From: Minisyncoccia bacterium
GTDB taxonomy: Bacteria > Patescibacteriota > Minisyncoccia > Phycocordibacterales > UBA9973
Assembly: GCA_039809245.1 (NCBI GenBank)
Contig: JBDHUP010000001.1
Location: forward strand, 100,137-164,136
DNA length: 64,000 nucleotides
Direction: 5' to 3'
Made by a program: the position numbers and the translations under genes. Numbering within the stretch: position 1 is the stretch's first letter; each line of letters begins with the position of its first letter. Positions 3,062 to 25,727 of this stretch are shown here, piece after piece. The notes beneath the pieces are model-generated. The model was given only the letters and a program-made list of their open reading frames with translations, searched no databases and was not told where the DNA came from.

Positions 3062-3065
3062 CAAT

Positions 3066-3716: not shown

Positions 3717-3724
3717 GTATTATA

Positions 3725-5146: not shown

Positions 5147-5418
5147 AGTATTTGTTTAACTTTCAAAAAGCCGTCCTGTGAGTCTGGCATTTGTTCTATT
5201 ATCTTGTCGCTGCATTCACCAGACTTATTAGTCACTACATCTTCACGCATAACATTCTCTAATACATAGACTGGAGTTGTGTCAGACTGTTTTACCTCCT
5301 GGACTTGGCCAACATACGCTAAAATAGGGTCAAATTCATTGGCCATATTCTCAAGCTCCTCTTCACTCATATCGAGCCTGGCCATAGTAGCCAGCTTTTT
5401 AATATCGTCTAATTGCAT
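5143..5418 (-). CDS. gatC: Glutamyl-tRNA(Gln) amidotransferase subunit C
   Basis: 91 aa. Reads MQLDDIKKLATMARLDMSEEELENMANEF..., GatC-like. Overlaps the gatA start by 4 nt. Confidence 0.8.
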   Translation of the reverse strand: MQLDDIKKLATMARLDMSEEELENMANEFDPILAYVGQVQEVKQSDTTPVYVLENVMREDVVTNKSGECSDKIIEQMPDSQDGFLKVKQIL

Positions 5419-5436
5419 TTCCTCAGAATAGCATAT

Positions 5437-7437
5437 TTAAAGAATCTTTAAAAACTCTTTTTCATTTAGAATTTTTACTCCTAATTTCTGGGCATCATTA
5501 TATTTACTACCTGGTTCATCCCCTGCTACCACATAATTTGTAGCTTTAGAAACCGAACTTGATACTTTGCCACCTTGCGATGTGATTTTTGCTTTAGCTT
5601 CATTGCGCCCCATAGATGATAGAGTCCCAGTAAGAACAAAAGTCTGCCCCGTGAGCTTACCACCTTTTGTAACTTTTGCTTTTTCTACAATAACTCCATT
5701 CTCTAAAAGTTTTTTAATAAAATTAATATTTTCTTTCTGTCTAAAGAAATCATTTACACTCTTGGAAACCACAGGCCCAATATTTTCAATACTATTAATA
5801 TCATCAATGCTTGCTTTTGAGATTTTATCTAAAGTTCCAAAATGGTTGGCGATATCTTGAGCTGTTTGCTCCCCTACATGAAGTATTCCAAGGGCATATA
5901 TAAATCGCCAAAGTGGAACTTTCTTATGAGATTCAATTGAAGAAATAATATTCTCAGCAGACTTTTCTCCGAAACGCTCGAGTCCGGATAAATCGGCAGT
6001 CTCTAGAGTGAATAGATCAGCAGTGTCACTTATAAGACCTTCATCTTTTAGGCGATCGAGAATTTTAGGACCAATAGTATATATTTCAAAAATATTTACA
6101 AAGTGCTGCATCCCCCTTCTGTTCTTCGCTGGACAATTCCTATTTGTGCAATAATATGCGACACTTGTTTTCTCTGATTCTCTTTTTTCAACTAGAGAAT
6201 TACACACAGGGCATTTCTCTGGCATTTTAAATTTTTTCTCTTTACCTGTACGCATTTTTACTAAAGTTTCTACAACTTCAGGAATAACATCCCCAGCTTT
6301 TTGAATAACAACTGTATCACCGATACGAATATCGAGCCGATTAATCTGATCCATATTATGGAGTGTAGCTTTAGATATTGTAGATCCTGCAACAAATGTA
6401 GGTTTAAAATGAGCAAGAGGTGTAAGTACTCCTGTTCGCCCAACATTTACAGTTATATCGGTCACAGTGGTTGTAGCGCGTTCTGCTGGATACTTGAAAG
6501 CTACCATATAACGCGGAGCCTTACCGACAACTCCAATAATATCCTGGAGTTCTAATTCATCAACAGATACGACAATACCATCAGTACCATATGGTAATTT
6601 ATCTCGGATTAAACCGACCTCATCTATAAATGAAAATATACCTTCTAGATTCTTAGATTTCTTTTCATAAGGAGCAACTTGAAACCCTAATTCTCTTAAA
6701 TACTTGTGCTCTTCTGAATGTGTTTCAATTTTTAACTTCTCTTTATCAGATTGTAGTTGTTTTATATCCCAAGCAAAGAAATCTAAACCTCTTTCTAAAA
6801 CAATTTTGGGGTCAAGCTGGCGTAGCGACCCTGCGGCTGCATTTCGAGTGTTAGCAAAAGGTATTTTACCCTCACGTTCTTGGATTTTGTTTAATTTACG
6901 CCAAGCTCTTTTGGGCATCACAACCTCACCACGAACTTCTACATACTCGGGAGAGAATTTAAGTTTAAGTGGTATTGTATTTATCATTTTCAAATTCTCA
7001 GTTATATCTTCTCCTATAAATCCATCACCACGAGTTCCACCTTGGGCAAAAGTACCATTTTTATAAATAAGAGATACTGCAAGTCCATCAAGTTTTAATT
7101 CGCAAAAATATGTATGTGGTTTGTCTATTAACTTCTCTACTCTCTTCTCCCAATCTTTTACTTCATCTTTATTAAATGCATCGTTAAGAGATAGCATTCT
7201 TTTCTCATGTTTTAGTTTCTTGAATTTATCAAGAGGCTTCCCTGCCACACGATTAACGGCGCTGTTTATATCAGCATATTTTGGATATTCCTTCTCTAGT
7301 TGAGATAGTTCCCTTGTTAGAGATTCATATATATCATCTGTAGTTTTTGGGTCATTCTCCACATGATATTTAAAACGCAATCTAGAAATCTCTTCCCGAA
7401 GTTTTTGTATTCGGTTTTTAGCTTCGATATCTTTCAT
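5437..7437 (-). CDS. ligA: NAD-dependent DNA ligase
   Basis: 666 aa. Adenylation motif KLDGLAVSL, Zn-finger cysteines, and HhH and BRCT-like C-terminus. Confidence 0.9.
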   Translation of the reverse strand: MKDIEAKNRIQKLREEISRLRFKYHVENDPKTTDDIYESLTRELSQLEKEYPKYADINSAVNRVAGKPLDKFKKLKHEKRMLSLNDAFNKDEVKDWEKRVEKLIDKPHTYFCELKLDGLAVSLIYKNGTFAQGGTRGDGFIGEDITENLKMINTIPLKLKFSPEYVEVRGEVVMPKRAWRKLNKIQEREGKIPFANTRNAAAGSLRQLDPKIVLERGLDFFAWDIKQLQSDKEKLKIETHSEEHKYLRELGFQVAPYEKKSKNLEGIFSFIDEVGLIRDKLPYGTDGIVVSVDELELQDIIGVVGKAPRYMVAFKYPAERATTTVTDITVNVGRTGVLTPLAHFKPTFVAGSTISKATLHNMDQINRLDIRIGDTVVIQKAGDVIPEVVETLVKMRTGKEKKFKMPEKCPVCNSLVEKRESEKTSVAYYCTNRNCPAKNRRGMQHFVNIFEIYTIGPKILDRLKDEGLISDTADLFTLETADLSGLERFGEKSAENIISSIESHKKVPLWRFIYALGILHVGEQTAQDIANHFGTLDKISKASIDDINSIENIGPVVSKSVNDFFRQKENINFIKKLLENGVIVEKAKVTKGGKLTGQTFVLTGTLSSMGRNEAKAKITSQGGKVSSSVSKATNYVVAGDEPGSKYNDAQKLGVKILNEKEFLKIL

Positions 7438-7445
7438 AAATTTTA

Positions 7446-7943
7446 CTAATAGGTAACTTTAATCTCACGTTCAACAGTCTTAGGATTTAGTTTGTTGCAA
7501 CTATTATAACCTCGAGCAAATATATTAGTTTTTATTAAACCAGTTCCATCATCGGCTTTAACAACTTCGAAATCAAAACATGGTATGGATTGACCAGACA
7601 AACTAGAGAATGTAGTGTAATTATCTCCAGTTCCTGATATCGAAAATGACATATCATTACCATTTAAATCTTTTCCACAGCTCCAGCTTGGAGGAAGACT
7701 TGAAGACATATCTAAAACATTATCTGCATAGAGTGCACACTCTGTCGCTGTATCAGATTGGAAAAAAGATAATTGTGAATCATTAGCTAAAGATGACAGA
7801 ACCAACTGCTTATAAGTTGAGTTAGATAAACCTAAAGCTATCATAGATATGATACTAACAACTACTACTGCAAATAGTACAGCATATCCTTTATTATTAA
7901 ATTTTAGTGTTTTAATAATTTTCATAATTTTTATTGTTGCCAA
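7446..7943 (-). CDS. Pilin-like or pseudopilin-like secreted protein with a degenerate prepilin signal (KGYAVLFAVVVV, no Glu5)
   Basis: Lies in the minor-pilin run. It has a hydrophobic N-terminal helix and Cys pairs in the C-terminal region. Confidence 0.35.
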   Translation of the reverse strand: MATIKIMKIIKTLKFNNKGYAVLFAVVVVSIISMIALGLSNSTYKQLVLSSLANDSQLSFFQSDTATECALYADNVLDMSSSLPPSWSCGKDLNGNDMSFSISGTGDNYTTFSSLSGQSIPCFDFEVVKADDGTGLIKTNIFARGYNSCNKLNPKTVEREIKVTY

Positions 7944-8536
7944 TTCAATAGACTAACTCTAGATGATCTAGATTTCACAAGGTTACCATTACGCCATTCC
8001 ACTACAACCTTTATATCTAGCTCGTTTGAGTTATTAATAAGTGGGTTTATCGACATACTTACCATTCGTTTAAAACTACTAGGTTTACCAGCTTTGTATG
8101 TATAAAAATCTTTATTAGCAGCAGTTTCATCATAATTAAACAATTTACAATCTATAGTACCGAAATTATTTGTATGCGGTGTATTACAAACATTTATATT
8201 ATCAGAAGAAGTATTAGCCGGCTCTATTTCACATCCAGCAGCTGAGAAGCATGAACTAGAGGTAGAGTAACCGTACTTATTTAAGAAATTAAACCATCCT
8301 CCGTCTATATCTGCACTTTTTTGAAATGCATAAGTATCACGATCATTTCTTATATAATCTATAGCTTCTTGAATTAAATAGTTTGCGGTTATGTCATTTT
8401 TTGAATATCGAGCTGAAAACAAACTGCTAGATATAAGGCCGAGTAAACCATTCATAGCCACAGCAAGGATAAAAACTGCTATCATCGTCTCTATAAGAGT
8501 AAAACCTTTATTGTGTTTTTTATTAAAAATTTTCAT
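7931..8536 (-). CDS. Type IV minor pilin (prepilin N-terminal methylation motif)
   Basis: KGFTLIETMIAVFILAV class III signal. Confidence 0.75.
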   Translation of the reverse strand: MKIFNKKHNKGFTLIETMIAVFILAVAMNGLLGLISSSLFSARYSKNDITANYLIQEAIDYIRNDRDTYAFQKSADIDGGWFNFLNKYGYSTSSSCFSAAGCEIEPANTSSDNINVCNTPHTNNFGTIDCKLFNYDETAANKDFYTYKAGKPSSFKRMVSMSINPLINNSNELDIKVVVEWRNGNLVKSRSSRVSLLNWQQ

Positions 8537-8537
8537 A

Positions 8538-9143
8538 TTATTCAGTTGATCTTTGAGATGTCATTGTTTGAATAGCAAAAGCATTAGCCTCACCTTTAAT
8601 AGTTATCACCCCTTTCATAATTATATATACACTCGGCTGTATTTTATCTGTAGGACTAGATCCATTAACAAAGAAGTTAAGCGTCTGGACATCTACATTC
8701 TGTGCTACTAGATCAACACAAGCTGGACTACAACTTTGCAAACTAAACGTCCCATTAGTATCATAACCACCTGTTAAACGAGGAGTTATCTTATAAGCAG
8801 TGTCTCTAGGAGTTGGATGAAGTGGTGGTGTAAATAACAGAGCACCTCCCCCACTACCAGAGAGTGAACAATCTCTATTTGTAGTTGCTCCGAATGGAAT
8901 TATCCCTCCAGCATCTACACAATAATAATCTGTCCCCATTCTTATAGATCTAGTCATACTCTCCATAGCGAAATTTACGTTGTCCATAGCTATTCTTAAT
9001 GCTTGAGCTTTTTTAGCTGTATCAGAACTTGATATAAGAGCACCCATAGCTATTAACATTATAATCATGAAAATAGAAGTAGCCACCATTATCTCTACAA
9101 GAGTAAAACCTTTCATTCTAATTTTTTGATATTTTTGGTTCAT
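8538..9143 (-). CDS. Type IV minor pilin (PilV/PilW-like)
   Basis: KGFTLVEIMVATSIFMI class III signal. Confidence 0.75.
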   Translation of the reverse strand: MNQKYQKIRMKGFTLVEIMVATSIFMIIMLIAMGALISSSDTAKKAQALRIAMDNVNFAMESMTRSIRMGTDYYCVDAGGIIPFGATTNRDCSLSGSGGGALLFTPPLHPTPRDTAYKITPRLTGGYDTNGTFSLQSCSPACVDLVAQNVDVQTLNFFVNGSSPTDKIQPSVYIIMKGVITIKGEANAFAIQTMTSQRSTE

Positions 9144-9144
9144 A

Positions 9145-9807
9145 TTATTTTACACTAATCTGACCTACGCTTGATATTGAAATTGTTTTTGTTTCTCCAC
9201 TCTGATCATTTTTTATAATAACATCAACACTTGAAATTGGCCCAGAACATGACCCTCCTATAGAACCAGAACAAATATATGCATCAGGGTTCGGTCTAAG
9301 AAATGTTACATCTGCATAGCCAGATGTAGTACAATTTGCTCCATTTGGACAAATCTGATAAACACTATCGTTACTTGTAATGTTTAACATATCAATACAC
9401 TCATCATTAGCCTGGATCAAGATATTACTACCGCAAATTGTCGAAGTTGATACAGCATAATTATACTCCTTATTTGAATTCAAGTCATTAAATATAATAA
9501 AATTCTTTTTAGATCCTGCTCTGGCATCTAGTCCGTTATAATTAGCCGTTGAGAAATGTATTCCGTATCCATAGGAGAAATTAGATGCTTGGCTACTATG
9601 TACTCCAATAGCATAATTCTGAGCACGACGAATTGATAAAGCTATATCATCACCTAAATTTTGTAGTGACACATTTGAGCGGAAACGACTATAATCAAAA
9701 ATTGTAATCCCTGCAACAATTATAAAAATCGCAAGAACCACCATTAGTTCAACTAAAGTCATTCCATTTTGAGTATTTTTAAAATAACTTTTTTTGTAGA
9801 TTTTCAT
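9145..9807 (-). CDS. Type IV minor pilin (FimT/GspH-like)
   Basis: NGMTLVELMVVLAIFII class III signal. Confidence 0.7.
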   Translation of the reverse strand: MKIYKKSYFKNTQNGMTLVELMVVLAIFIIVAGITIFDYSRFRSNVSLQNLGDDIALSIRRAQNYAIGVHSSQASNFSYGYGIHFSTANYNGLDARAGSKKNFIIFNDLNSNKEYNYAVSTSTICGSNILIQANDECIDMLNITSNDSVYQICPNGANCTTSGYADVTFLRPNPDAYICSGSIGGSCSGPISSVDVIIKNDQSGETKTISISSVGQISVK

Positions 9808-9810
9808 TTT

Positions 9811-10623
9811 TTATATATGAAATAATGATACTAATGAAAAAATATCTAAATTACAAAGAAATACGATCAGAGCGCTTATAATTAAGAATGGAGCAAATGG
9901 TATTTCTGTTTTCATATTTATTTTCTTATGTGTAAATAAGATTACAGCTAGACTAACAACAGATCCTATCCAAAATGATATCATAATTACCGCAAGCCCC
10001 GAAAGAGTGCCGAGCATCCAACCTATACCGAGCATTAGCTTAGCATCACCTAGACCCATCCATCGTCCTTTTGAGACAAGCCACAGAAGTGCAAAAGGTA
10101 GTGCTAGAAGCGGGCCAGCAACAACATCAAGTAATGATGCTTTTACAAAGAGTGAACCAACACCGGTCTGATTTATAAATATAGATAAAAAGGAAATAGC
10201 AGCATATATATAAACTAATTTATCAGGTATAATTTTATGACGAATATCATAAACCGAAATAACAATAAGCAAAGAGAATATAAAAGAAAATATAGTTAAA
10301 AATAAAACATAGTGGCTTTGAGAAAACGATAAGACTGGTAAGAAATGTAATGCTATTAAAACAAAAACTAGCCCTGTACCAAACTCAACAATAGGATACT
10401 GGTGAGATATATTACTAGCGCATCTACGGCATTTGCCTGATTGAATTAGAAAAGAGAAGATTGGGATTAACTCATACCACCTAAGAGTGTGGTTACAAGT
10501 CATGCATATAGACCTTCCGGCGACTATTGATTTACCAGTATTAAACCTATAAATAACGACATTCAGAAAACTACCAATTAGTGTCCCTAGAAGAAAAATA
10601 AAGACGATAGCTAAAATATACAT
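9811..10623 (-). CDS. pilD: Prepilin peptidase (A24 family) with an N-terminal CxxC...CxxC zinc-binding domain
   Basis: Polytopic membrane protein. Contains CMTCNH...CRRCAS, and the catalytic Asp-containing regions are conserved. Confidence 0.85.
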   Translation of the reverse strand: MYILAIVFIFLLGTLIGSFLNVVIYRFNTGKSIVAGRSICMTCNHTLRWYELIPIFSFLIQSGKCRRCASNISHQYPIVEFGTGLVFVLIALHFLPVLSFSQSHYVLFLTIFSFIFSLLIVISVYDIRHKIIPDKLVYIYAAISFLSIFINQTGVGSLFVKASLLDVVAGPLLALPFALLWLVSKGRWMGLGDAKLMLGIGWMLGTLSGLAVIMISFWIGSVVSLAVILFTHKKINMKTEIPFAPFLIISALIVFLCNLDIFSLVSLFHI

Positions 10624-10651
10624 ACAAATATTATATCACTCTATTGTTAAA

Positions 10652-10681
10652 AACAAAAACACTCCTAAGAGTGTTTTTGTT
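10652..10681 (-). terminator. Rho-independent terminator downstream of pilA
   Basis: aacaaaaacactc/gagtgtttttgtt stem with loop ctaa, followed by a T-run on the minus strand. Confidence 0.6.
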
Positions 10682-10704
10682 AAATATAAGAAAAATATTT
10701 TCTT

Positions 10705-11151
10705 TTATCCGCAAACTGTATCCGCACTTGAGGCACCTGCTGTAATAGTTGAAGAAGCTTTAGCTCCTGAGAATCCTGTACTATCTACACAGTAGTAGTT
10801 TGTACCACCAGTAGGTAATAATGCTTCAAAAGCCCAACTAGCTGAAACTGCACCAGCAGCACCTGACATTGCACATTTTGTTGAAGTAGCACCTCCGTTA
10901 GTAACAGCAGTTATAAGTGCAGTTATACTTCCAGTTGTAGCGGCAGAACAAAGATCAGCTACATATTGTCCAGATGAGTTAACCCCTAATTCTGCTTGTG
11001 TTCGCATAGAACTCATAGTAGATATAACAGATGCATCTCTACCCTTGTTTCTTGCTGTACTCAAAGAAGCGAGGACAACTGAAGCTAGGATACCGATGAT
11101 TGCGATAACGACCAAAAGTTCGATAAGTGTAAAACCTTTATTTTTATTCAT
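10705..11151 (-). CDS. pilA: Type IV major pilin
   Basis: MNKNKGFTLIELLVVIAIIGILASVVLASL class III signal peptide. Ala/Ser/Thr/Gly-rich body with a C-terminal Cys pair. Confidence 0.9.
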   Translation of the reverse strand: MNKNKGFTLIELLVVIAIIGILASVVLASLSTARNKGRDASVISTMSSMRTQAELGVNSSGQYVADLCSAATTGSITALITAVTNGGATSTKCAMSGAAGAVSASWAFEALLPTGGTNYYCVDSTGFSGAKASSTITAGASSADTVCG

Positions 11152-11217
11152 ACTAAAATGTAAATCTATTAATTTGTATCTTTTATAAAAAGATGCGACC
11201 TTATTTTTAATACTCTT

Positions 11218-11226
11218 ATTATATCA
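11218..11226 (-). promoter_or_regulatory. Candidate extended -10 promoter (TGATATAAT) for pilA
   Basis: Minus-strand TGnTATAAT lies about 65 nt upstream of the pilA start codon. Confidence 0.3.
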
Positions 11227-11272
11227 TATAAAGCTTAAAAAAGCGCAACAACACAATAACTGTGGATATCTT

Positions 11273-12481
11273 TTAGTGTATTCCTCCGGCAATGTTGTAG
11301 ATAGGCATCAAAACAGAAGTCAGAAGAAGTCCTACTCCAAGACCAAGACCAACTATCATTAATGGCTCAATAAGACTAACGAGAGTATCTATAGCTTCAT
11401 TCACTTCACGAGCATAGAAGTGCCCTAGAGTTTTAAGTATGCTACCCATTGAACCAGTTTCTTCTCCAACTTTTACCATACCAGTCATAATGGAAGGAAT
11501 TTCTGGATGTGGTGCCAATGAATCAGAAAAAGAACTTCCACTCTTCACTTTCTCTGTGACATCCTTTAATATTCCTTCGTATACACTATTACCCACTACA
11601 CTTGAAGTAAGTTCTATGGCTCGAATAATAGGAATACCAGATGAAAGCATCGTGTCCATATTATCCGAAATGCGTGATAAATATAATTTAATATATATAT
11701 TCTTAAAAATTGGAACTGAAATTTTTACTCTATCTAGATATTGTTTACCAGACTTTGACTGAGTTAGTCTAACAAGATATATAACAAACAAAATAAATCC
11801 AATTAAAATAAATATTCCATAATTAACTAATAAGTCACTAATACCCATAACAATCTTAGTAGATAAAGGTATTTCTTGACCAGATTCCTTGATTATAACG
11901 GCTAGTCTAGGAACAATAAAAACAAACATTAATGTCATAACCGCAATAAAAACTCCAACTACGAACCCTGGATAAACCAGGGCGTTTTTAGTTTTTGAAG
12001 TTAATTGGTATTGGCGATCAAGATATTCTGCTAAATATGAAAATGTTTGAGTAAGCTTTCCAGATTCTTCACCAGCCTTTACCATATTTACATAAAAATC
12101 TGAAAAGGCTTCTGGATGTTTAGCGAGTGCTTGAGATATAGTGACACCTGAAGAAATATCGGCAGATACACTATTTAGAACTTTAACCAACGCTGCATTC
12201 TCAGTATTTGAAGCAAGAAGATTAAAAGCTTTAAGGGCTGAAACTTGAGCTTCAAAGAGCGTAGATATCTGTCGTGACATAATAACCACATCTTTCTGTG
12301 CAACACCTTTTTCAAAAAAAGACATTTGCAATAATCCTTTCTTCTCAGTTTCTTCATTTATTGAAAGAACTATAAGACCTCTACGCTGTACCGCAATAAC
12401 AGCCAAATCTTTGGAAGCAGCGTCTACCGTTCCTTTCTTTTTCTCACCTGTATTTGTAATAGCGTCATAAGTAAATAACAT
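11273..12481 (-). CDS. pilC: Type IV pilus assembly platform protein (GspF family)
   Basis: 402 aa polytopic protein with two GspF-type repeats. Confidence 0.85.
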   Translation of the reverse strand: MLFTYDAITNTGEKKKGTVDAASKDLAVIAVQRRGLIVLSINEETEKKGLLQMSFFEKGVAQKDVVIMSRQISTLFEAQVSALKAFNLLASNTENAALVKVLNSVSADISSGVTISQALAKHPEAFSDFYVNMVKAGEESGKLTQTFSYLAEYLDRQYQLTSKTKNALVYPGFVVGVFIAVMTLMFVFIVPRLAVIIKESGQEIPLSTKIVMGISDLLVNYGIFILIGFILFVIYLVRLTQSKSGKQYLDRVKISVPIFKNIYIKLYLSRISDNMDTMLSSGIPIIRAIELTSSVVGNSVYEGILKDVTEKVKSGSSFSDSLAPHPEIPSIMTGMVKVGEETGSMGSILKTLGHFYAREVNEAIDTLVSLIEPLMIVGLGLGVGLLLTSVLMPIYNIAGGIH

Positions 12482-12487
12482 AAGAAA

Positions 12488-13546
12488 TTATAACATTCGC
12501 TCTAGAGCTTTAGGATTAATTGAATATTGGTATGCGCTCTCCATACTTATTTCCCCTCTTTGTACAAGTTCAACAAGAGATCTATTCATATCAACCATTC
12601 CAGATTCTGAAGAAGTTTCTATAACATTATTTATCTCATGTGTACGCTTTTCTCGAATAAGATTTGATACTGCGTTATTATTTATCAAAAGTTCATATGC
12701 TGGAACACGTCCTCCAGCTATACGAGGAACAAGTCTTTGAGAAAAAACGGCAATTAAACTAGATGCGAGTTGTAAACGAATTTGATCTTGCTGAGATGCT
12801 GGGAATGAATCGATAATACGGTCTATTGTTTGTGATGCATTATTTGTATGAAGGGTTGAGAGAACTAAGTGTCCAGTTTCTGCGGCTGTTACAGCTGCAG
12901 AAATAGTAGCTGCGTCACGCATTTCACCTATAAAAATAACATTAACATCTTCACGAAAGACTGATTTTAAAGCCCCATTAAAACTCTCTGTATCAATACC
13001 AACTTCTCTTTGATCAATTATAGATTTATCAGGTTTATACACAAACTCTATAGGATCTTCAATAGTGACAATATGTGCTGCTCTTTCACTATTAATCATA
13101 TTTATCATAGTAGATAAAGTTGTTGATTTACCTTGACCAACTGGACCGACTACAAGAAAGAAACCTTGATTCTTCTGAGCAAAACTGGCAAGAATTGGAG
13201 GAAGGTTTAATTCTTCAAATGACTTTGCTTTCGGGATAAGACGAAGAGCAATACCAATAAGACCTCTCTGATAGAAAGCGTTGCCACGTAAATGTGTATC
13301 TTCTTCAAAAGAGTAAGAGAAATCGGCTTCTTTTTCTTCGGTAAATTTTTTAGTTTTTTCTGAGCCTAGAATTACAGTTAGTATTCCAATCATATCTTCA
13401 TTTGTTAAGACTTCTTGATTAGCTAGAAACAGAAGTTGCCCAGCAATACGCATAGCTGGCTTTCTACCTGCTCCTAAGTGTAGATCTGATCCATCTTCAC
13501 GCATAAGGCTGGTAAGTAATTCATTTAAAAATTTTTTATAATCCAT
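12488..13546 (-). CDS. pilT: Twitching-motility/retraction ATPase PilT
   Basis: 352 aa. Walker A GPVGQGKSTT, Asp box and His box of the PilT family. Confidence 0.85.
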   Translation of the reverse strand: MDYKKFLNELLTSLMREDGSDLHLGAGRKPAMRIAGQLLFLANQEVLTNEDMIGILTVILGSEKTKKFTEEKEADFSYSFEEDTHLRGNAFYQRGLIGIALRLIPKAKSFEELNLPPILASFAQKNQGFFLVVGPVGQGKSTTLSTMINMINSERAAHIVTIEDPIEFVYKPDKSIIDQREVGIDTESFNGALKSVFREDVNVIFIGEMRDAATISAAVTAAETGHLVLSTLHTNNASQTIDRIIDSFPASQQDQIRLQLASSLIAVFSQRLVPRIAGGRVPAYELLINNNAVSNLIREKRTHEINNVIETSSESGMVDMNRSLVELVQRGEISMESAYQYSINPKALERML

Positions 13547-13554
13547 AATAATTT

Positions 13555-13947
13555 TTATTTATTATTTACAGTACTAATAATACTATTAACTTTATCTATA
13601 ACTTCAGAAGGAGTGCTAGATGCTTTTACTATATAACCTGCTGCTCCTAATGATTCCCCTCTCGCTATATCTGATGGTTGACCTCGGTTAGATAAAACAA
13701 CGCGGATAGCTCCTGGTGCTAATTTTTCCTCATTCATTTTTTCCATAAGTTCAAATCCGTCCATAACAGGCATTACTATATCTAAGAGTATTATATCTGG
13801 ATTAAGACCTAAATGAAGTTTCTCTAAGGCTTGTTCAGAACCAAGTGAAGTAGTTACGTCAAAATTAGACTGATGGAATTTCAATGCATACATATCGAGA
13901 AGGAAGCTATCATCGTCAATAATCAAAATTTTTTTCTTTACTTCCAT
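13555..13947 (-). CDS. Stand-alone CheY-like response-regulator receiver domain (PilH-like), embedded in the pilus operon
   Basis: KILIIDDDSFLLDMY...DIILLDIVMPVMDGFEL... Confidence 0.8.
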   Translation of the reverse strand: MEVKKKILIIDDDSFLLDMYALKFHQSNFDVTTSLGSEQALEKLHLGLNPDIILLDIVMPVMDGFELMEKMNEEKLAPGAIRVVLSNRGQPSDIARGESLGAAGYIVKASSTPSEVIDKVNSIISTVNNK

Positions 13948-13984
13948 ATAAGGATATTATAATACAGTTACTATACTTTGCCTA

Positions 13985-15730
13985 CTAAAAGTTATAAACC
14001 TCCTGGAAAGGAATACTACCATTTAGACTCTTTACAATTGCATCTTCTCTTATAGAAAGCATTCCACGAGATCTAGCGAGTTTATAAATCTCTTGTTCTT
14101 GTGGTTTCTTAAGTATTATATTTTGCATTTCTTTATCAATTTCAAACATTTCAAACAAAGCAATACGACCTCTCATTCCAGATGGACATTCAGGTGAAGG
14201 AACAGCTTCGTACATTGACTTACCTATATTTAACTTACTCTTGTATTCTTCTGGTAAATCTTGGAATTGTTTTTCGAGCATTATCTTAGTAGCTTCATCT
14301 ATAGGAATTTCATGTTTTGAGGCTGGGAAAATACGGCGAGCTAGACGCTGAGCAACACATAATATAAGTGTAGGAGCGATAAGGTAAGGATCAATTCCCA
14401 TATCTATTAGACGTGGTATAGCTCCAACAGAAGAGTTAGTGTGGAGAGTAGAGAAAACTAAGTGACCAGTAAGAGCTGCTTGAATTGCAAGCTCGGCTGT
14501 TTCTTTATCTCTTATCTCTCCAACATATATTATATCTGGGTCCTGACGTAAAATTGACCTAAGTCCTGAAGCAAAAGTATAACCAATTTCAGGAGTAACT
14601 TGAGATTGATTTACTCCATCAATATGATATTCAACTGGATCTTCTAGAGAAACTATATTCTTTTCTTCATGATCAAGTTCATTTAGCATAGAATAAAGTG
14701 TTGTTGTCTTACCAGAACCAGTTGGACCTGTAAGGAGTATTAAGCCATAAGGTTTCGTGAGAGCGCTCCTAACCAGAGCTAAGTTTTCTTTAGACATATC
14801 TAGATTCCCTAGAGATTGAACTCCTTTATCAGAATCAAGGATACGCATAACAATTTTTTCTCCATAGTATGATGGCATTGTAGAAACACGAAAATCGATT
14901 TTTCGACCATCAATCTTGGCAGAGAATCCTCCATCTTGAGGTTTTCTTTTCTCATCAAGTCTTAACTTCGCTAATATTTTTATACGGGCAACTACTCCAT
15001 TATAGACATTTATAGGCAGTACAAGTGAAGTGTGTAAAACACCGTCAATACGAAATCTTACTCTGACTTTATCACCAACATTTTCAATATGTATATCAGA
15101 AGCAGAACCTTCTGTCGCATGTCTTAAAATAACTGCAACTATTTTAATGATTGGAGCATCTTCAACAATCCTTTCTTCTTCACCTGGTTTTAAAGAATCA
15201 GAAGTTTTTGTATTTTTCTCAATTGTAACACCCTCATCCCCCTCTCCTTTTGCTCCAGCTATTTCAGAATCAAGTTCTGAAAGAGCTTGGTCAACTTCGC
15301 TACCTAATCCTTCGTATGCTTGAATAAGTTGATTGTAAGTTGAAGTTTTAATCAAAAATAACTTGAACGGCTTATTCATTTTTGAAGTTATAAATGTAAG
15401 TGCATCTATAGCTTGAACGTTTTCTGGGTCTGTTATTCCTATTTCAAGAACACTATCAGAAACTCCTATAGGAACAAAGTGGTAAATCTTTGCCGATTCA
15501 GCTGGAATTAACTCTAGCGTTGATGGAACCACTCTCTTAGGATCAATATCTTTTATTGGAACATTGAAAATAGCTCCTTTTGCTTGAAGGATAGCATTCT
15601 CATCCAAATTAAAATCTAATAGGGCTTGGTCGACATTACCACTATATTTCTCATCAGCAATTTTTAAGACTTCAGGTATTTGTATTTCTTTTAGGATGCC
15701 TCTTTTTACTAATTCATCAAGAATTATCAT
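13985..15730 (-). CDS. pilB: Type IV pilus assembly ATPase PilB (GspE family)
   Basis: 581 aa. N-terminal GspII-like domain, Walker A LLTGPTGSGKTTTLYS, and a tetracysteine region. Confidence 0.9.
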   Translation of the reverse strand: MIILDELVKRGILKEIQIPEVLKIADEKYSGNVDQALLDFNLDENAILQAKGAIFNVPIKDIDPKRVVPSTLELIPAESAKIYHFVPIGVSDSVLEIGITDPENVQAIDALTFITSKMNKPFKLFLIKTSTYNQLIQAYEGLGSEVDQALSELDSEIAGAKGEGDEGVTIEKNTKTSDSLKPGEEERIVEDAPIIKIVAVILRHATEGSASDIHIENVGDKVRVRFRIDGVLHTSLVLPINVYNGVVARIKILAKLRLDEKRKPQDGGFSAKIDGRKIDFRVSTMPSYYGEKIVMRILDSDKGVQSLGNLDMSKENLALVRSALTKPYGLILLTGPTGSGKTTTLYSMLNELDHEEKNIVSLEDPVEYHIDGVNQSQVTPEIGYTFASGLRSILRQDPDIIYVGEIRDKETAELAIQAALTGHLVFSTLHTNSSVGAIPRLIDMGIDPYLIAPTLILCVAQRLARRIFPASKHEIPIDEATKIMLEKQFQDLPEEYKSKLNIGKSMYEAVPSPECPSGMRGRIALFEMFEIDKEMQNIILKKPQEQEIYKLARSRGMLSIREDAIVKSLNGSIPFQEVYNF

Positions 15731-15731
15731 A

Positions 15732-16412
15732 CTAATTTGTATTAAATGAAACTACATCACCATATATCGGTGCAGTTCCTACTTTTGCGACTGCCCTATA
15801 AAAGTAAGTAGTCTCTGGAGTTAATCCTTTAATACTTGTAACGAAAGTACCGACTAAAGATTGTTTTACTGGAGATGTGGATTGGCCTAGCTCTGGATCT
15901 GCTCCATATTCAAAGAAAACACTAGTAACTCCACTAAGATTATTTATTGTTCCATTTAAAATTGCACTCTTATCAGTAACCTGAGTTGGGTCATTTGTAA
16001 CAACAGGAGACAAAGCAGAGTTGCTAGAAGAAACTTCGGAAGAAAACGGAGCAAAAGGGTTAGGACGTCCAGGAACTGCAGCTTCTAAATTAACAGTATT
16101 ATCATTAAGCGATAAGAATTCTTGACTGTTAAATATAGTAGTATCAATTTTAATTTTTTTTAGAGATGTGAGTGTCGCAAGAAAAGCAGTATCTTCGGCA
16201 ATTTTATCTTCATTATTTATCCCTAAGACTGAAGAAGAACTACCATTTTGAGATACAAGAGAAGAATTTGCAGAGACAGGAGTATCTAAAGCTTGGACAT
16301 ACAAACTATTTGAAAAATAACTATAAACACCGCCTACTAATAGAGCGAGAGATGTTATTATTAAAAATTTGTTATATGATTTATTCATATTATTTAAGCC
16401 AGTAAGTTTCAA
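15732..16412 (-). CDS. Hypothetical secreted or membrane-anchored pilus-associated protein with a C-terminal beta-sandwich (FN3-like) domain
   Basis: N-terminal TM segment, a Ser-rich linker, and the C-terminal motif LNGTINNLSGVTSVFFEYGADPELGQ...TTYFYRAVAKVGT. Confidence 0.4.
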   Translation of the reverse strand: MKLTGLNNMNKSYNKFLIITSLALLVGGVYSYFSNSLYVQALDTPVSANSSLVSQNGSSSSVLGINNEDKIAEDTAFLATLTSLKKIKIDTTIFNSQEFLSLNDNTVNLEAAVPGRPNPFAPFSSEVSSSNSALSPVVTNDPTQVTDKSAILNGTINNLSGVTSVFFEYGADPELGQSTSPVKQSLVGTFVTSIKGLTPETTYFYRAVAKVGTAPIYGDVVSFNTN

Positions 16413-16980
16413 CTTTTAATGAAAATTCATAAATATTTGGGTCAACTCCATTTTGCTTAGAATCAGGAACTGTAAAACTAACAGATTTAATATCTACTAA
16501 TCGTAGATTATGCTCTACCTCAGATAAAAACTTCGCAAATGAATCATATGTTCCTTTTGTCGAAAACTCTACTGGGAAAACTCCATAAGGCAGAGCACTC
16601 GACGCTCCACTAGAGGCAACTACTGCACCATTATTATTCTTAGAAACTTCAGGGGCATTCTGCTGTGTTTGGAATTTAATATTTTCGACTGGCATGCCAT
16701 GAAGATTTGCTAATTGCTCTATCTCTAGTATAAACCTTATATTATTTACTGTGTTTGGTAAGAAATGAGCAAGGCGATCCTTATCAGCTTGGCTGATATT
16801 CTTATATGCATCAACTAATTTATCTCTAGTCTTTTGAAGATCAGTTGAATTATCTAATGCAACATTATAAACAAGAACATCAGCTTTTAATTGAGAAACT
16901 TCGGCTCGTATTGGATTTACAACTACAAAAAATAGTATGCCAGCGATTAGTATTAAAGATAGTGGAAATAGAAATCTCAT
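16390..16980 (-). CDS. pilO: PilO-like pilus assembly protein
   Basis: Single N-terminal TM segment plus a coiled-coil. Sits between the pilN-like gene and the ORF226/pilB genes. Confidence 0.55.
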   Translation of the reverse strand: MRFLFPLSLILIAGILFFVVVNPIRAEVSQLKADVLVYNVALDNSTDLQKTRDKLVDAYKNISQADKDRLAHFLPNTVNNIRFILEIEQLANLHGMPVENIKFQTQQNAPEVSKNNNGAVVASSGASSALPYGVFPVEFSTKGTYDSFAKFLSEVEHNLRLVDIKSVSFTVPDSKQNGVDPNIYEFSLKVETYWLK

Positions 16981-16982
16981 AT

Positions 16983-17717
16983 TTATTGGTTAGAGTTATT
17001 AGCCGGTAATGAAGTCTCTGGAGGATTAGAAACGGCAGGAGCAACTTGGTTGCTTTGTGTAGTAGAAGTGTCTTGGGTAGCAGGGCTATTATCTTCCGTG
17101 GTTGGTTGTAATTTTAACTGAGTTTGTTCTAGTAACAAATTCTTCTGATATGAAAGAAGCTCTGGGTCAACAATAAAATCTATATCAAAAGTAACATATC
17201 CATTCTTATTCCTCGTTAAGTTTGAAAAAACTACATTTTTAAAAGATCGTCCTTTAGCAGTATTAAAAACATCAGCTTGCAAGGCAATTGATCTATAATC
17301 ACGAGCAATTCCACTCATTTTTACAAAGAAACCTTTATCATTTGTTTGATGGTCAAATTTTGTATACTGAACTCCTGCTATGGTTAAATCACCGAGTAAT
17401 TTAAACAGCGGAGAAAGAACAATGTGACCGTTCAAAACTTGTTTAGCTGAAGATACACGCTTATCGTACAGTTCAAGTTCATCAATGGTGTCTTTCTCAA
17501 AACTATCTCTAACCTTCTCTAATGATGCAGATAGGATTTGCTTTTCTTTTATAAGATAGTTTTTATAAACATATAAACCTCCAGATGCTACCCCAGTAAC
17601 AATAAGAATTAATACGGAAAAAACCATAAAAAGATTCGTAGCTGGTTTACTTTTTGAAACACCAGAAGATGTAATGGGCTTTTTAGGTATAAATGATGTT
17701 TGAAATGAATTTTCCAT
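16983..17717 (-). CDS. pilN: PilN-like pilus assembly protein
   Basis: Single TM segment (LFMVFSVLILIVTGVASGGLYVY) followed by a coiled-coil. Immediately downstream of pilM. Confidence 0.55.
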   Translation of the reverse strand: MENSFQTSFIPKKPITSSGVSKSKPATNLFMVFSVLILIVTGVASGGLYVYKNYLIKEKQILSASLEKVRDSFEKDTIDELELYDKRVSSAKQVLNGHIVLSPLFKLLGDLTIAGVQYTKFDHQTNDKGFFVKMSGIARDYRSIALQADVFNTAKGRSFKNVVFSNLTRNKNGYVTFDIDFIVDPELLSYQKNLLLEQTQLKLQPTTEDNSPATQDTSTTQSNQVAPAVSNPPETSLPANNSNQ

Positions 17718-17725
17718 AATTATAG

Positions 17726-18895
17726 TTAAGATAGTTGGCGTAATGCAAGACCAACCGCCACAGCAAACTCAGGACCGCTTGTTTGTAGGACTGGTTCAAG
17801 AAAGGCTGGTGCCTCTGTTTTCGAAAATGGATTACCGTAGACTACTTCCATATTAAAATTTGCAATAGCATGCTCAAGTAATCCTTTAAGTAGAGAACCT
17901 CCTCCCGTCATAATAACCTTACTTATATTTTTATTATACTTCTTCTCGTAAGCAAGCACAACACTATTTGTCTCTGAGAATATATAATCTGTGGATAGAC
18001 GAACAATGTCAGATACTTGTGAATTCGCTAGTGCATCTAGTCCAATTGATCGCTTCAGTTTTTCAGCTTCATTAAAAGGAATAGTTAGAGATTGTGAAAT
18101 ATTTTTTGATATATCTTGTGAACCACGATTAACTATATGAAATACTCTCACAACACCAGCTTCTACAATAGAAAGCTTTGTTTTTGAAGCTCCAAAATCC
18201 ATCAAAAGTACGGGGGCAAGGTCGTTATTGAAAGTTGAACGAATATTACTAAATACTTCCATCTCAAAAGAATCAGAATGTATCTCAGTCTTTGTTAGAA
18301 TTTCTTGAAACCTAGATAGTGTATCATTGTGTATAGCTACAACTAAAATTTCTAATTTCGGTTCAGCAACTTTTTTATCTTTTTGTTCATTCATCGAATC
18401 TTCAAAATTATCAATTTCCTGTGGAATAACAAACCAGTCAAGCGATACTTCAGAAATAGGAACTGGAATATACTTTCTAGCTTCAATTGGAACTATAGAA
18501 GCGAGTTGATCTTCATTAACTTTAGCAGGAAGAGATATTGTAAAAATCAAACTTGCTGCTGAAGGAATAGCTATAACTCCTGACATGGTCGTGATATTAG
18601 ATTCCTTTATAACATCGGTTAGAGCTCTGGCAATATCATCTGTTGACAGATTTGTGACAACTCCTACATCTGTATTGCCATATGGACCCAATGAAAGAGC
18701 ACCATAAGTTTCAAGAACAGCTTTGCCACCTTTCTTTTTAAGTTGGACAACTTTTATTGCAGATGAACCTATATCTATGCCTAGTACACTTTCTGATGCT
18801 TTTTCAGATTTAAATATATTAGATAAACTAGATAGCCCCCCAGAAATTATTTTCTTTAGTGAATTGTCCATATATACTACTATGTAGTATACCAT
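17726..18895 (-). CDS. pilM: Type IV pilus assembly protein PilM (actin-like ATPase)
   Basis: IGIDIGSSAIKVVQL... actin/HSP70-like fold. Its start is probably the internal Met (MDNSLKK) near 18871. Confidence 0.8.
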   Translation of the reverse strand: MVYYIVVYMDNSLKKIISGGLSSLSNIFKSEKASESVLGIDIGSSAIKVVQLKKKGGKAVLETYGALSLGPYGNTDVGVVTNLSTDDIARALTDVIKESNITTMSGVIAIPSAASLIFTISLPAKVNEDQLASIVPIEARKYIPVPISEVSLDWFVIPQEIDNFEDSMNEQKDKKVAEPKLEILVVAIHNDTLSRFQEILTKTEIHSDSFEMEVFSNIRSTFNNDLAPVLLMDFGASKTKLSIVEAGVVRVFHIVNRGSQDISKNISQSLTIPFNEAEKLKRSIGLDALANSQVSDIVRLSTDYIFSETNSVVLAYEKKYNKNISKVIMTGGGSLLKGLLEHAIANFNMEVVYGNPFSKTEAPAFLEPVLQTSGPEFAVAVGLALRQLS

Positions 18896-18915
18896 AGCTA
18901 TAGTAAAATAAAGCT

Positions 18916-19590
18916 GTGGAATTAGGCCTTTCTTTTATTAAATCAATAACTAAATGGGTGCTTAACGTACTATTCCCTGATAAGTGCTTAGGGTGTCGTA
19001 TTAAAGGTGATATTCTATGTTTAAAATGTTCTTACAAGATAAGGAGAGCTGAAAGAGAAACAAAATCTGGTATTTTTGCAGCTTACGATTACAGAGACCC
19101 TATAATAAAGAAGGTCATCTGGAATTTGAAATACTATAAAAGAAAAGATCTTGGTGAAAAGCTTGGTAAAATGCTTTATGAGGCATTAATAGAAGAAGTC
19201 GCAGATATCGAAATTTTTACAAAAGGACAACCTATACTAGTACTACCTGTCCCCCTATCAAGAACCAGAAGGAAATTACGAGGTTATAATCAAGCAGAAA
19301 TAATAGCTGATGGATTCTGTAGTTTAGAGAAAGGTAATAAACTTCAATTAGCAAAAAAAGTTATAGCTAAAAAAATTGATACTCTACCTCAAGCCCGTAT
19401 AACAAACAGAGTAATAAGACTTAAAAATATTCATAATGCATTTCAGATTATTAATACAGATATCATAAAGGGCAGAACCATAATCATAATAGACGATGTG
19501 ACTACCACAGGTGGCACAATCTTAGAAATATCAAAACTACTAAAAAAACACGGGGCTAAAAAAGTAGTCGGTTTTGCGATTGCTCATTAA
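18916..19590 (+). CDS. comF: Competence protein ComF (ComFC-type phosphoribosyltransferase domain with N-terminal Zn-ribbon)
   Basis: CLGCRIKGDILCLKC zinc ribbon. C-terminal PRTase motif IIIDDVTTTGGT. Confidence 0.8.
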   Translation: MELGLSFIKSITKWVLNVLFPDKCLGCRIKGDILCLKCSYKIRRAERETKSGIFAAYDYRDPIIKKVIWNLKYYKRKDLGEKLGKMLYEALIEEVADIEIFTKGQPILVLPVPLSRTRRKLRGYNQAEIIADGFCSLEKGNKLQLAKKVIAKKIDTLPQARITNRVIRLKNIHNAFQIINTDIIKGRTIIIIDDVTTTGGTILEISKLLKKHGAKKVVGFAIAH

Positions 19591-20798
19591 TTATTCCAAA
19601 GGTCCCAAATCATACCAGCTATATTTCGTGGTTTTCCTTCTAAAGCATAATAATGTAAATCTATGAATGGCAGTGTATTACATTCTATTATTCCCCACCT
19701 CTGAGTACCTTGATCTTTTGTTGGATCTGGAATAATACAATCAAATCCAACAACCGAAAGTCCTACAACATTAGCTGCTTTTTCTAAGATTGGAATAAAG
19801 CTTGGATGTAGATCATCTATCATTTCTTTTGTTGTTCCTCCAAATAACCTTCCTATCCTATGAGATAGAGTGAGCAAGAATCCATCGGGTAAAATATCAT
19901 CGATTTTAAATCCAAATTTTGAAATGTGATTATATAATTCATCTCCTAAGCGTATAGCTTCAACTCTATCATTACGCAAAAAATCTTTCTCGTTTATTAA
20001 TTGTCTTATCGTTTTATTTCCATCACCAATCACAAACGGTGCTTGCCCTCTGTAAAAACCTGCTAATTTGCCCCCTACAACAGTTGCCCTACAAACATAT
20101 CCATACAAATTTTCTTCTACAACCAAGTGCGCAGATATTTGGCGTGCTATAGAAACTCCCTCTTTAAATTGTTCGAGTGTTTTTATATTAGTAATTGTAT
20201 GTCTAGCTCGAGAACCAATTTTTGGTTTTACTATAACAGGAGTTTTGAATTTTGAAAAAATACTACTCAAACTTTTGAATCTAATAAGGGGAATAAGTGC
20301 ATATTCAGGTACTGGTATGTCGTATTTTGACAATTCTTTCTTTAAAAGAATTTTATTATCCCAATCTTTTCTAAAGTCTAAAAACTCAGGTTGTATAGGT
20401 ATACTTTCAAAATAGATTGTTTTATTTTTTATTTTCGCTCTATACCAATCCAAGGGTTTCTTCCTTAAAATAATTTGGTCCATTTCTATTCCTCTTTTCC
20501 TTGCTTCATCCCATATTACACGAGATCTAAAAGAACTAGCTTTATCAATATCTGAAGAGAAACTTGCTAATCTAAAGACAATAAGTGCCTTAAAAAGAAA
20601 AGTAGGTATCCAACTTGCAAAATCTTTCAGAAACTTTGGTGCATAATTAGTAACTCTCACCATATGGGAATCACTAATTGATGACACGAAGTTTTCCACA
20701 AAAAAAACCTTGTGATTAACCTGAGCATCTCCACAGTAAGAGCATCTTCCGTTTTTTATAATAGTTGGTTCCAACATTGTACATTTAGTATTATACAC
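19587..20798 (-). CDS. ATP-grasp family ligase (cyanophycin-synthetase-like or RimK-like ATP-grasp domain)
   Basis: Central region reads VIVKPKIGSRARHT...YGYVCRATVVGGKLAGFY..., typical of the ATP-grasp fold. The first ATG is at 20777; the ORF track starts at GTG 20798. Confidence 0.5.
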   Translation of the reverse strand: MYNTKCTMLEPTIIKNGRCSYCGDAQVNHKVFFVENFVSSISDSHMVRVTNYAPKFLKDFASWIPTFLFKALIVFRLASFSSDIDKASSFRSRVIWDEARKRGIEMDQIILRKKPLDWYRAKIKNKTIYFESIPIQPEFLDFRKDWDNKILLKKELSKYDIPVPEYALIPLIRFKSLSSIFSKFKTPVIVKPKIGSRARHTITNIKTLEQFKEGVSIARQISAHLVVEENLYGYVCRATVVGGKLAGFYRGQAPFVIGDGNKTIRQLINEKDFLRNDRVEAIRLGDELYNHISKFGFKIDDILPDGFLLTLSHRIGRLFGGTTKEMIDDLHPSFIPILEKAANVVGLSVVGFDCIIPDPTKDQGTQRWGIIECNTLPFIDLHYYALEGKPRNIAGMIWDLWNN

Positions 20799-22398: not shown

Positions 22399-22447
22399 AC
22401 ACTTATTATAACAGTAATTAAAATAATAATAAAATACAACTATGGGA

Positions 22448-23201: not shown

Positions 23202-23286
23202 ATTTAAATAGTATAACAAAACTTTAAAATAAGATATACAAATATAAAATAACTACTATTTTAATAGTAGTTATTTTTGTGAAAAT

Positions 23287-24150: not shown

Positions 24151-24154
24151 TTTG

Positions 24155-25717: not shown

Positions 25718-25727
25718 CACATAAAAA

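Follow-up and report, generated by a model that had tools for sequence, protein, structure and literature searches.

We describe a type IV pilus locus in a 64-kb stretch of contig JBDHUP010000001.1 (the window, whose own numbering is used throughout) and, within it, a stand-alone receiver of the two-component type, here termed pil-RR, that is encoded between the genes for the extension ATPase PilB and the retraction ATPase PilT. We read the region as the principal pilus locus, type IVa-like and without a secretin, of a Paceibacteria bacterium (Patescibacteria, or Candidate Phyla Radiation, CPR), and the locus as such is ordinary for the CPR; the embedded, class-conserved receiver is an unreported feature, modest in novelty and worth a targeted test. 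Judged from its sequence, pil-RR is an intact phospho-acceptor with no output domain, and on the grounds of synteny, co-variation and precedents in other bacteria we consider it fairly probable that it acts as a phospho-switch on the pilus motor, setting extension against retraction.

A stand-alone receiver within the motor genes

The receiver and the motor and platform genes around it are as follows (values after model names are E-values):

13555-13947, minus strand: pil-RR, receiver domain (REC) only, 130 aa (PF00072, 1.3e-17 over residues 7-118); 37 nt after pilB and 8 nt before pilT
13985-15730, minus strand: pilB, extension ATPase with an N-terminal MshEN-type domain (T2SSE, PF00437, 1.7e-119; PF05157, 6e-13)
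12488-13546, minus strand: pilT, retraction ATPase (TIGR01420, PilT/PilU family, 4.7e-127; 424 bits against a cut-off of 319)
11273-12481, minus strand: pilC, platform protein (two PF00482 repeats, 6e-53; GspF/PilC NCBIfam models, 1e-99 to 8e-82)

A preliminary description of this DNA had set beforehand that absence of the conserved Asp pocket would count against the receiver. The pocket is intact (D12, D13, D56, S86, Y105 and K108), and in an alignment of 71 orthologs D12/D13 are retained in 70/70 sequences, D56, S/T86 and K108 each in 71/71, and Y/F105 in 65/71, with Y20, N87, A109 and P113 as further, family-specific invariants. The closest solved relative is the stand-alone RR468 of Thermotoga (profile E-value 2e-25). 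A PilR-type (NtrC) regulator, which needs an AAA+ sigma54-activator domain and a helix-turn-helix domain, was rejected as an identity for pil-RR, which consists of the receiver domain only.

Relatives were collected by a PilT-based scan that kept one genome per species and yielded 80 loci, all from metagenome-assembled genomes (MAGs) of Patescibacteria and mostly labelled Paceibacteria, Parcubacteria or Minisyncoccia (best match, 86% identity), and synteny was counted from a tblastn map of the window proteins onto these loci. The whole gene order recurs: a divergent comF, then pilM, pilN, pilO, a small protein, pilB, the receiver, pilT, pilC, one to four tandem copies of pilA, pilD, four pilins, ligA, gatC, gatA and orf206, which encodes a membrane protein described below. 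In 66/74 loci the receiver is flanked by pilB and pilT, with median gaps of 39 nt from pilB to the receiver and of 11 nt, often 1 nt, from the receiver to pilT. Beyond comF the flank is not conserved, any gene there being common to at most 14 loci, so the block is not mere general synteny. Within this sample of loci the receiver, the small protein between pilO and pilB (named for its GRxNPFAP motif) and the fixed ligA-gatCA tail are Paceibacteria-wide features.

The receiver is about as conserved as PilB and PilC: across bands of relatives defined by PilT, its identity is 80/61/47%, that of PilB 80/63/53% and that of PilC 79/60/53%, all far above PilN, PilO and the minor pilins (30-60%). When the 170 receiver open reading frames (ORFs) of all fetched loci are compared, those embedded in pilus loci make up a separate group that occurs nowhere but between pilB and pilT, and kinase-adjacent receivers share at most 50% identity with any pil-RR (160 loci). 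We also considered, and rejected, the second receiver of the HK-RR-RR clusters (a histidine kinase, HK, with two receivers) as a pil-RR ortholog: these proteins group among themselves and are at most 50% identical to any pil-RR. In 8/74 loci the pilB-pilT junction lacks the receiver; these loci include the three most distant ones (L077, L079 and L080) and at least four scattered Paceibacteria lineages whose nearest neighbours carry it, a scatter suggesting that the receiver was lost or moved several times.

Distance matrices from 29 genomes, compared with ligA as a control, tie the receiver most closely to PilB (partial correlation 0.70), PilC (0.64) and PilM (0.58) and least to PilT (0.29, a value that the low divergence of PilT, with a standard deviation of 0.12, may depress); the known physical pair PilB-PilC reaches 0.80 in the same test. 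The difference between the PilB and PilT correlations was positive in 1000/1000 subsamples. As a soft hint, this co-variation points to the PilB/PilC side as the partner of the receiver.

A candidate kinase module

The only kinase in the window, and the only receiver besides pil-RR, lie together:

32532-33272, plus strand: HK, soluble 246-aa histidine kinase with HisKA and HATPase_c (DHp and CA) and no sensor or membrane part
33294-33659, plus strand: RR2, 121-aa stand-alone receiver (Response_reg, 1e-21), 21 nt after HK and followed by recG

RR2 is 38% identical to pil-RR and has a similar alpha4-beta5 motif. The kinase has no Hpt, P2 or CheW domains, and chemosensory families gave no match among the 40 window ORFs scanned against Pfam. 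Distant relatives of the kinase (for example, a 410-aa protein at 9491-10723 of L111) carry an N-terminal PAS domain, an input domain that seems, from this comparison, to have been lost in the clade of the window.

The arrangement HK-RR2-recG is conserved in close relatives, and a metagenome scan places it 1-6 kb from comF/pilM in L084, L085, L086 and L089. HK-RR2 adjoins comF in L013 and L025, an HK-RR-RR cluster lies 2.5 kb past the other end of the pilus block in L163, and in L144 (9749-19576) an HK and a stand-alone receiver lie 5 nt upstream of pilB, which is followed by pilC, four unknown ORFs, pilM and pilN, with no pilT between pilB and pilC. The L144 arrangement shows this two-component family joined independently to a pilus locus. 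Because the family is repeatedly associated with pilus genes in differing arrangements, a kinase of the 32532 type, already put forward in the preliminary description, is the best candidate for the partner of pil-RR, on circumstantial grounds. A "pilB" match at 3-5 kb from the kinase, present in about 14 distant metagenome loci, was disregarded as evidence; the L111 example encodes a T2SSE ATPase of 435 aa and neighbours ruvB, with tsaE and a gene for a 5'-3' exonuclease between it and the kinase.

A proposed switch on the pilus motor and its alternatives

In the model that we favour, pil-RR would be phosphorylated on Asp56 and would then bind the cytoplasmic motor, more likely on the PilB/PilC extension side than at PilT, and this binding would change the relative weight of pilus extension and retraction, a kind of control that the preliminary description had already suggested. 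As phosphate donor we propose a small soluble histidine kinase of the 32532 type that would also serve RR2, making up a circuit of one kinase and two receivers, a small-scale counterpart of PilG/PilH or PixG/PixH. Binding to the motor is proposed from synteny, co-variation and the precedents of DrdR, PixG/PixE and PilG/PilH, which are compared below. A broader version, in which the receiver is an integral, class-conserved part of the Paceibacteria motor (a PilB/PilT phospho-switch fed by a sensor-less mini-kinase, with the GRxNPFAP protein in the place of PilP), is offered more tentatively, as less likely than not.

Several points weigh against a switch. Absence from eight junctions marks the receiver as dispensable or mobile, and its conserved adjacency to the motor genes is weak evidence, since the unrelated gatCA genes are equally fixed in the block. 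The co-variation comes from a mirror-tree comparison with one control gene and a PilT value that may be too low, and the scan of the block for promoters and terminators was not above chance. The kinase at 32532 comes with a receiver of its own next to it and is 13.6 kb away from pilM, and our view covers 64 kb of the genome, with kinases possible elsewhere.

Three other readings compete with the motor-binding model, each of which we rate below it. Given that the window encodes a single kinase and two REC-only proteins, pil-RR could be a phosphate sink or competitor that drains the shared kinase and tunes RR2, while RR2 or another protein carries the output. Such a role would suit the paralogy of pil-RR and RR2, with their 38% identity and similar alpha4-beta5 motif, and the HK-RR-RR clusters of more distant relatives; a sink role is cited for PilH in PMC11656802, and the same has been proposed for CheY2-type sinks. 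We nevertheless think a sink unlikely, as it gives no reason for the fixed position between pilB and pilT or for the co-variation with PilB and PilC, and the family has invariant surface residues of its own off the active site (Y20, A109, P113, E115 and V116). Action on PilT, and so on retraction, for instance by recruiting PilT to the platform or releasing it, strikes us as improbable to a similar degree: of the two gaps beside the receiver, the one to pilT is the narrower (8 nt in the window, and often 1 nt among relatives), which suggests translational coupling, and DrdR binds PilT besides PilB (PMC13507683), but PilT shows the lowest co-variation of the cytoplasmic components, and the related receiver of L144 stands directly before pilB at a locus with no pilT between pilB and pilC.

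We give least credence to the view of the receiver as a syntenic passenger, frozen like ligA-gatCA in a small and slowly rearranging genome and devoid of any pilus-specific role. Housekeeping genes unrelated to the pilus are as fixed in the block as the receiver, which has been lost from its junction at least four times and is most like generic stand-alone receivers such as RR468; yet it lies inside the motor sub-block and not at its edge, the other flank of the locus is unconserved, co-variation with PilB and PilC exceeds the ligA background, and related kinase/receiver pairs occur independently beside pilus genes in other arrangements.

Comparison with known systems

The CPR is known to have type IV pili that lack a secretin, with clustered components and a connection to competence (PMC6744442). 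Such pili have been termed a hallmark of the phylum (PMC13293708) and count as the characteristic organelle of these bacteria for interaction with hosts and for DNA uptake (PMC6744442, PMC13293708), and functional pilus data are available for Saccharibacteria (PMC12206443, PMC9894109). The described loci (Meheust et al. 2019, PMC6744442; TM7x T4P-1, PMC12206443; TM7i, PMC9894109) are like the present one in their co-localised pilM/N/O, pilB, pilT, pilC, pilD and several pilins, in the absence of PilQ and in their association with competence genes, with host attachment, twitching and DNA uptake as proposed functions, but their descriptions list no receiver or two-component gene. The distant sampled loci L077, L079 and L080, one of which is from a Levybacteria MAG, are likewise without a receiver. 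We found no mention of a receiver in a CPR pilus locus in the searchable literature, which has most subscription journals outside its reach, and a 2024 review of PilB cofactors contains no case of a receiver embedded in a pilus locus.

Precedents for receivers that control pili come from three systems, and in none of them is the receiver encoded between pilB and pilT. PilG and PilH of the Pseudomonas Pil-Chp system are two single-domain CheY-like receivers under one kinase that govern type IV pilus deployment (PMC10519157, PMC12632253), where they are antagonistic (PMC10519157). They are encoded with a methyl-accepting chemotaxis protein (PilJ), a CheW protein (PilI) and the CheA-type ChpA, and act largely via polarity and cyclic AMP, whereas here the only kinase in the window is a 246-aa HisKA-type DHp and CA protein and one of the two receiver genes stands between pilB and pilT. 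In Xanthomonas campestris, DrdR (PMC13507683) is an output-less regulator that binds PilB and PilT and alters their ATPase activity; unlike pil-RR, a single canonical REC in the motor operon, it has two REC domains, one of them degenerate, and is called an orphan. The PATAN-REC proteins PixG, PixE and PixH of Synechocystis are phosphorylation-controlled receivers that contact the motor (PilB1; 10.1101/2021.06.11.447907; PMC11181946). They too include two antagonistic receivers under one kinase, but have PATAN as an additional N-terminal domain and are part of chemotaxis-like Tax operons, whereas the receiver here has no extra domain.

RR468 of Thermotoga maritima is also a stand-alone REC paired with a HisKA kinase, HK853 (PDB 3dge). 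The resemblance is limited to about 35-40% similarity, and that pair has no link to pili. HK853 is a membrane sensor kinase, and the kinase at 32532 has neither a sensor nor a membrane segment. The pili of monoderms (Clostridium, Streptococcus sanguinis; ref. 43 in PMC6744442) share with this locus the lack of a secretin, PilM/N/O, PilB, PilT, PilC, PilD, minor pilins and the MshEN domain on PilB; the control known for them differs, being exerted by cyclic di-GMP (C. perfringens PilB2, as cited in PMC11656802) and riboswitches. The MshEN N-terminus of PilB in the window reads by eye as lacking the Arg, Gly and Gln of what we take to be the c-di-GMP motif, and we make no claim of c-di-GMP binding for it. 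In monoderm pilus loci we are not aware of a receiver encoded between pilB and pilT, though no systematic search was made for one.

If pil-RR is such a switch, it would decide between pilus extension (finding or holding a host or DNA) and retraction, and would represent one of very few signalling pathways in these reduced genomes. The receiver and its minimal kinase would then offer a testable way into host sensing and response by ultra-small episymbionts, and would add a genomic, non-proteobacterial case to the output-less receivers that act directly on PilB and PilT. A smaller gain lies in annotation, as PilN, the GRxNPFAP protein and the fourth minor pilin, "hypothetical" in public records, can now be named or placed.

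Organization of the pilus locus

According to ORF calls and Pfam and NCBIfam searches, the block on the minus strand comprises 19 genes over 15.8 kb (3096-18895), in the order pilM, pilN, pilO, FN3 membrane protein (the GRxNPFAP protein), pilB, receiver, pilT, pilC, pilA, pilD, four minor pilins, ligA, gatC, gatA and the Rx4H membrane protein (orf206). The preliminary description had placed each of these genes correctly in position and strand, and its length for the locus, 11 kb, proves too short. The block contains just two gaps of more than 40 nt, one of 121 nt 5' of pilA and one of 81 nt 3' of pilA. The G+C content is about 35%, and TGA is rare among the stop codons. Independent public gene calls on contigs with an identical receiver give the same gene set and shift three starts (pilM, 381 aa; FN3 protein, 218 aa; fourth pilin, 159 aa).

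The PilB-type ATPase, a member of the PilT family, PilC, PilD and pilins with the G/F...E prepilin signal together mark a retractile type IVa-like system. The best NCBIfam model for PilB is TIGR02538, at 495 bits and under the equivalog cut-off of 675. The label "competence locus" is imprecise: DNA uptake is plausible and would be an inferred function, but the presence of PilT and PilM/N/O identifies a type IVa-like pilus and excludes a ComG-type competence pseudopilus (ComGA/ComGB/ComGC-GG, without PilT and PilM/N/O), and ComG models from NCBIfam score far under the PilB, GspF and PilT models on the window proteins. No secretin domain, and so no outer-membrane secretin PilQ, was found in any window ORF of at least 250 aa, for which reason we class the locus as a monoderm-type, secretin-less variant; this agrees with the CPR-wide absence of secretins (PMC6744442) and upholds the earlier suggestion of a CPR-like envelope, the nearest genomes being Paceibacteria/Patescibacteria MAGs.

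The competence gene comF is divergent from pilM, as had been proposed, and lies upstream of pilM in this orientation in 49/54 related loci:

18916-19590, plus strand: comF, ComFC-type phosphoribosyltransferase with a zinc ribbon (TIGR00201, 6e-25, below cut-off; Pfam Pribosyltran and DZR_2)

Adjoining comF, an ATP-grasp protein of 403 aa (19587-20798, minus strand), nearest to the C-terminal half of cyanophycin synthetase (5e-40), is present in only 14 related loci.

Alignment proteins and the GRxNPFAP protein

Upstream of pilB lie the genes for the alignment complex and a small membrane protein:

17726-18895, minus strand: pilM, actin-like cytoplasmic platform protein (TIGR01175, 1e-45, 156 bits against a cut-off of 133; PF11104, 3e-35)
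16983-17717, minus strand: pilN, with an N-terminal FIPKKP motif, one transmembrane helix, a long coiled coil, a ferredoxin-like domain and a disordered Pro/Thr/Gln-rich tail
16390-16980, minus strand: pilO (PF04350, 8e-8, above cut-off; ortholog profile against Myxococcus PilO, 3jc8, 3e-10 over nearly the full length)
15732-16388, minus strand: FN3/GRxNPFAP protein, 218-aa bitopic membrane protein with a transmembrane helix, a further helix, an invariant GRPNPFAP (residues 107-114) and a C-terminal FN3 domain

The PilM-PilN-PilO subcomplex is present, with PilM over its NCBIfam cut-off and the PilO profile matching 3jc8; pilM itself probably starts at 18871 (381 aa). For pilN and pilO, the absence of a PilN/PilO-fold prediction had been named beforehand as grounds for doubt, and both the predicted fold of PilN and the profile match of PilO hold. 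As a single protein PilN had no match in Pfam or NCBIfam, a profile of its orthologs found no PilN in the PDB, and alignment of the PilN and PilO families with hhalign gave a probability of 33% only. Pfam PilN is weakly matched by 22/59 orthologs, and an AlphaFold2 model built with 70 homologs has a transmembrane helix, a long coiled coil and a ferredoxin-like domain (mean predicted local distance difference test, pLDDT, 76.6, with folded parts above 90). Its tail (16983-17120, minus strand) comprises about 45 Pro/Thr/Ser/Gln-rich residues that vary among orthologs and are predicted to be disordered (pLDDT below 50); it may serve as a spacer that spans the cell wall.

The FN3 protein, previously described as secreted, proves to be membrane-anchored, and its start is the ATG at 16388. 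Its FN3 domain is a confident structure prediction but is clade-specific, and most relatives of the protein lack it; what recurs between pilO and pilB, in 55/56 related loci, is a short core with G-R-x-[N/D]-P-F-A-P. All public records list the protein as "hypothetical", and it has no Pfam family. Its gene occupies the position of pilP in diderm systems, and its short R-x-[ND]-P-F motif resembles, we presume, one in PilP. PilP is a lipoprotein with an N-terminus that binds PilN/O and a beta-sandwich that docks on the secretin. An identity as PilP was rejected and only the shared position retained, as 16 and 31 family members gave no PF04351 match at E<=1, and no PilP chain was among the PDB profile matches of two alignments of the family. 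The GRxNPFAP protein may be a fifth component of the alignment complex, specific to this lineage, and is, beside the receiver, a secondary target deserving a test.

Pilins and transcription signals

Downstream of pilC, the block encodes the major pilin, the prepilin peptidase and, where "four or five" minor pilins had been proposed, exactly four:

11218-11226, minus strand: extended -10 TGATATAAT, 67 nt 5' of the pilA ATG, read directly; putative promoter
10705-11151, minus strand: pilA, major pilin with N-terminus MNKNKG/FTLIE (PF07963, 3.5e-11; TIGR02532)
10649-10678, minus strand: terminator-like hairpin, AAAAACACTC-TTAG-GAGTGTTTTT then GTTTTT, just 3' of pilA, read directly
10630-10638, minus strand: second TGATATAAT, the same 9-mer as before pilA, its -10 hexamer ending 6 nt before the pilD ATG, read directly
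9811-10623, minus strand: pilD, prepilin peptidase/methyltransferase (PF06750, 3e-32; PF01478, 1.5e-12)
9145-9807, minus strand: minor pilin 1, GspH/FimU/ComGD-like (N_methyl, 3e-7; weak GspH and ComGD matches); Glu+5 in 46/50 orthologs
8538-9143, minus strand: minor pilin 2, GspJ/PilW-like (N_methyl, 6e-7; weak GspJ and ComGE matches); Glu+5 in 40/47 orthologs
7931-8536, minus strand: minor pilin 3, PilV/GspI-like (N_methyl, 7.5e-8; TIGR02523 PilV, 9e-8, below cut-off); Glu+5 in 38/44 orthologs
7446-7925, minus strand: minor pilin 4, G/YAVLF, without Glu+5 and by that feature GspK/PilX-like; 159 aa, with the start at 7925 in an independent call

The H/J/I typing of minor pilins 1-3 comes from weak, sub-threshold NCBIfam matches. 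Minor pilin 4 has no family match in Pfam or NCBIfam, and position +5 is F, L or I and never E across 45 orthologs, the absence of Glu+5 being a hallmark of GspK/PilX-type minor pilins. A further type IV pilin gene with GspG/pilin models and N_methyl lies outside the main block, 3.5 kb beyond pilM (22448-22936, minus strand), and is adjoined by two small ORFs (22114-22458 and 22938-23219).

A promoter and a terminator of its own had been ascribed to pilA. A consensus scan of 3000-19700 gave no signal, with 53 promoter-like sites against 67 expected and 9 terminator sites against 7.6 expected, not above chance, and it missed the pilA hairpin; the flanks of pilA were for this reason read by eye, and TGATATAAT and the hairpin with its T-run are directly readable. 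The position of the second TGATATAAT, so close to the pilD ATG, suggests that the unit of pilD, minor pilins and ligA may start with a leaderless mRNA. Across loci only the gaps from pilC to pilA (median 132 nt, and never 20 nt or less, in 60 loci) and from pilA to pilD are consistently long, which suggests three likely transcription units: pilM through the receiver, pilT and pilC; pilA alone; and pilD, the four pilins, ligA, gatC, gatA and the gene for the Rx4H protein.

The ligA-gatCA tail and the Rx4H membrane protein

The run-on of the pilin genes into ligA-gatCA, which had been noted before, is real and conserved:

5437-7437, minus strand: ligA, NAD-dependent DNA ligase, 8 nt after minor pilin 4 (PF01653, 1.4e-86, and five more ligase domains)
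5143-5418, minus strand: gatC (PF02686, 1.4e-15), with a 4-nt overlap with gatA
3725-5146, minus strand: gatA (PF01425, 3e-140)
3096-3716, minus strand: orf206, Rx4H membrane protein of 206 aa with a conserved C-terminal domain with R-N-x-I-A-H; last gene of the block

Minor pilin 4 is followed by ligA in 41/41 loci, ligA by gatC in 19/20 and gatC by gatA in 11/11. The tail is best read as a housekeeping operon that has turned into a fixed downstream neighbour, and not as a pilus component; it is probably co-transcribed in part with the pilus genes. The block has no gatB beside gatC and gatA, the next gene being that for the Rx4H protein.

Described earlier as "HEPN-like", orf206 does encode a membrane protein, but the HEPN label is imprecise, resting on the R-N-x-I-A-H (Rx4H) motif, present in 16/18 orthologs, and on faint Pfam matches (E-values 0.07-0.2) to HEPN_Swt1 (3/18 orthologs, E-value 0.07), RiboL-PSP-HEPN (2/18) and pEK499_p136 (1/18). 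The protein itself had no match in Pfam, NCBIfam or the PDB. Its gene follows gatA in 23 related loci and is faced by a tRNA-Asp gene.

Other features of the window

A tRNA-Ser gene at 24154-24240 (minus strand; Rfam tRNA, 57 bits) has the 7-nt anticodon loop TTACTAA and the anticodon ACU, with an unmodified-looking A34, which is unusual in a serine tRNA; at a distance of 1.4 kb there is also a normal tRNA-Ser(GCU) gene (25631-25718). ARAGORN reports a tRNA-Ile with the anticodon UAU at 36506-36580 (minus strand), which implies decoding of AUA without the usual lysidine-modified CAU tRNA. At 46739-49480 (minus strand), the window encodes a VirD4/TraD-like coupling-protein ATPase of 913 aa (T4SS-DNA_transf, TraG-D_C), possibly a member of the Patescibacteria type IV secretion system of a 2025 preprint (10.1101/2025.01.22.634366).

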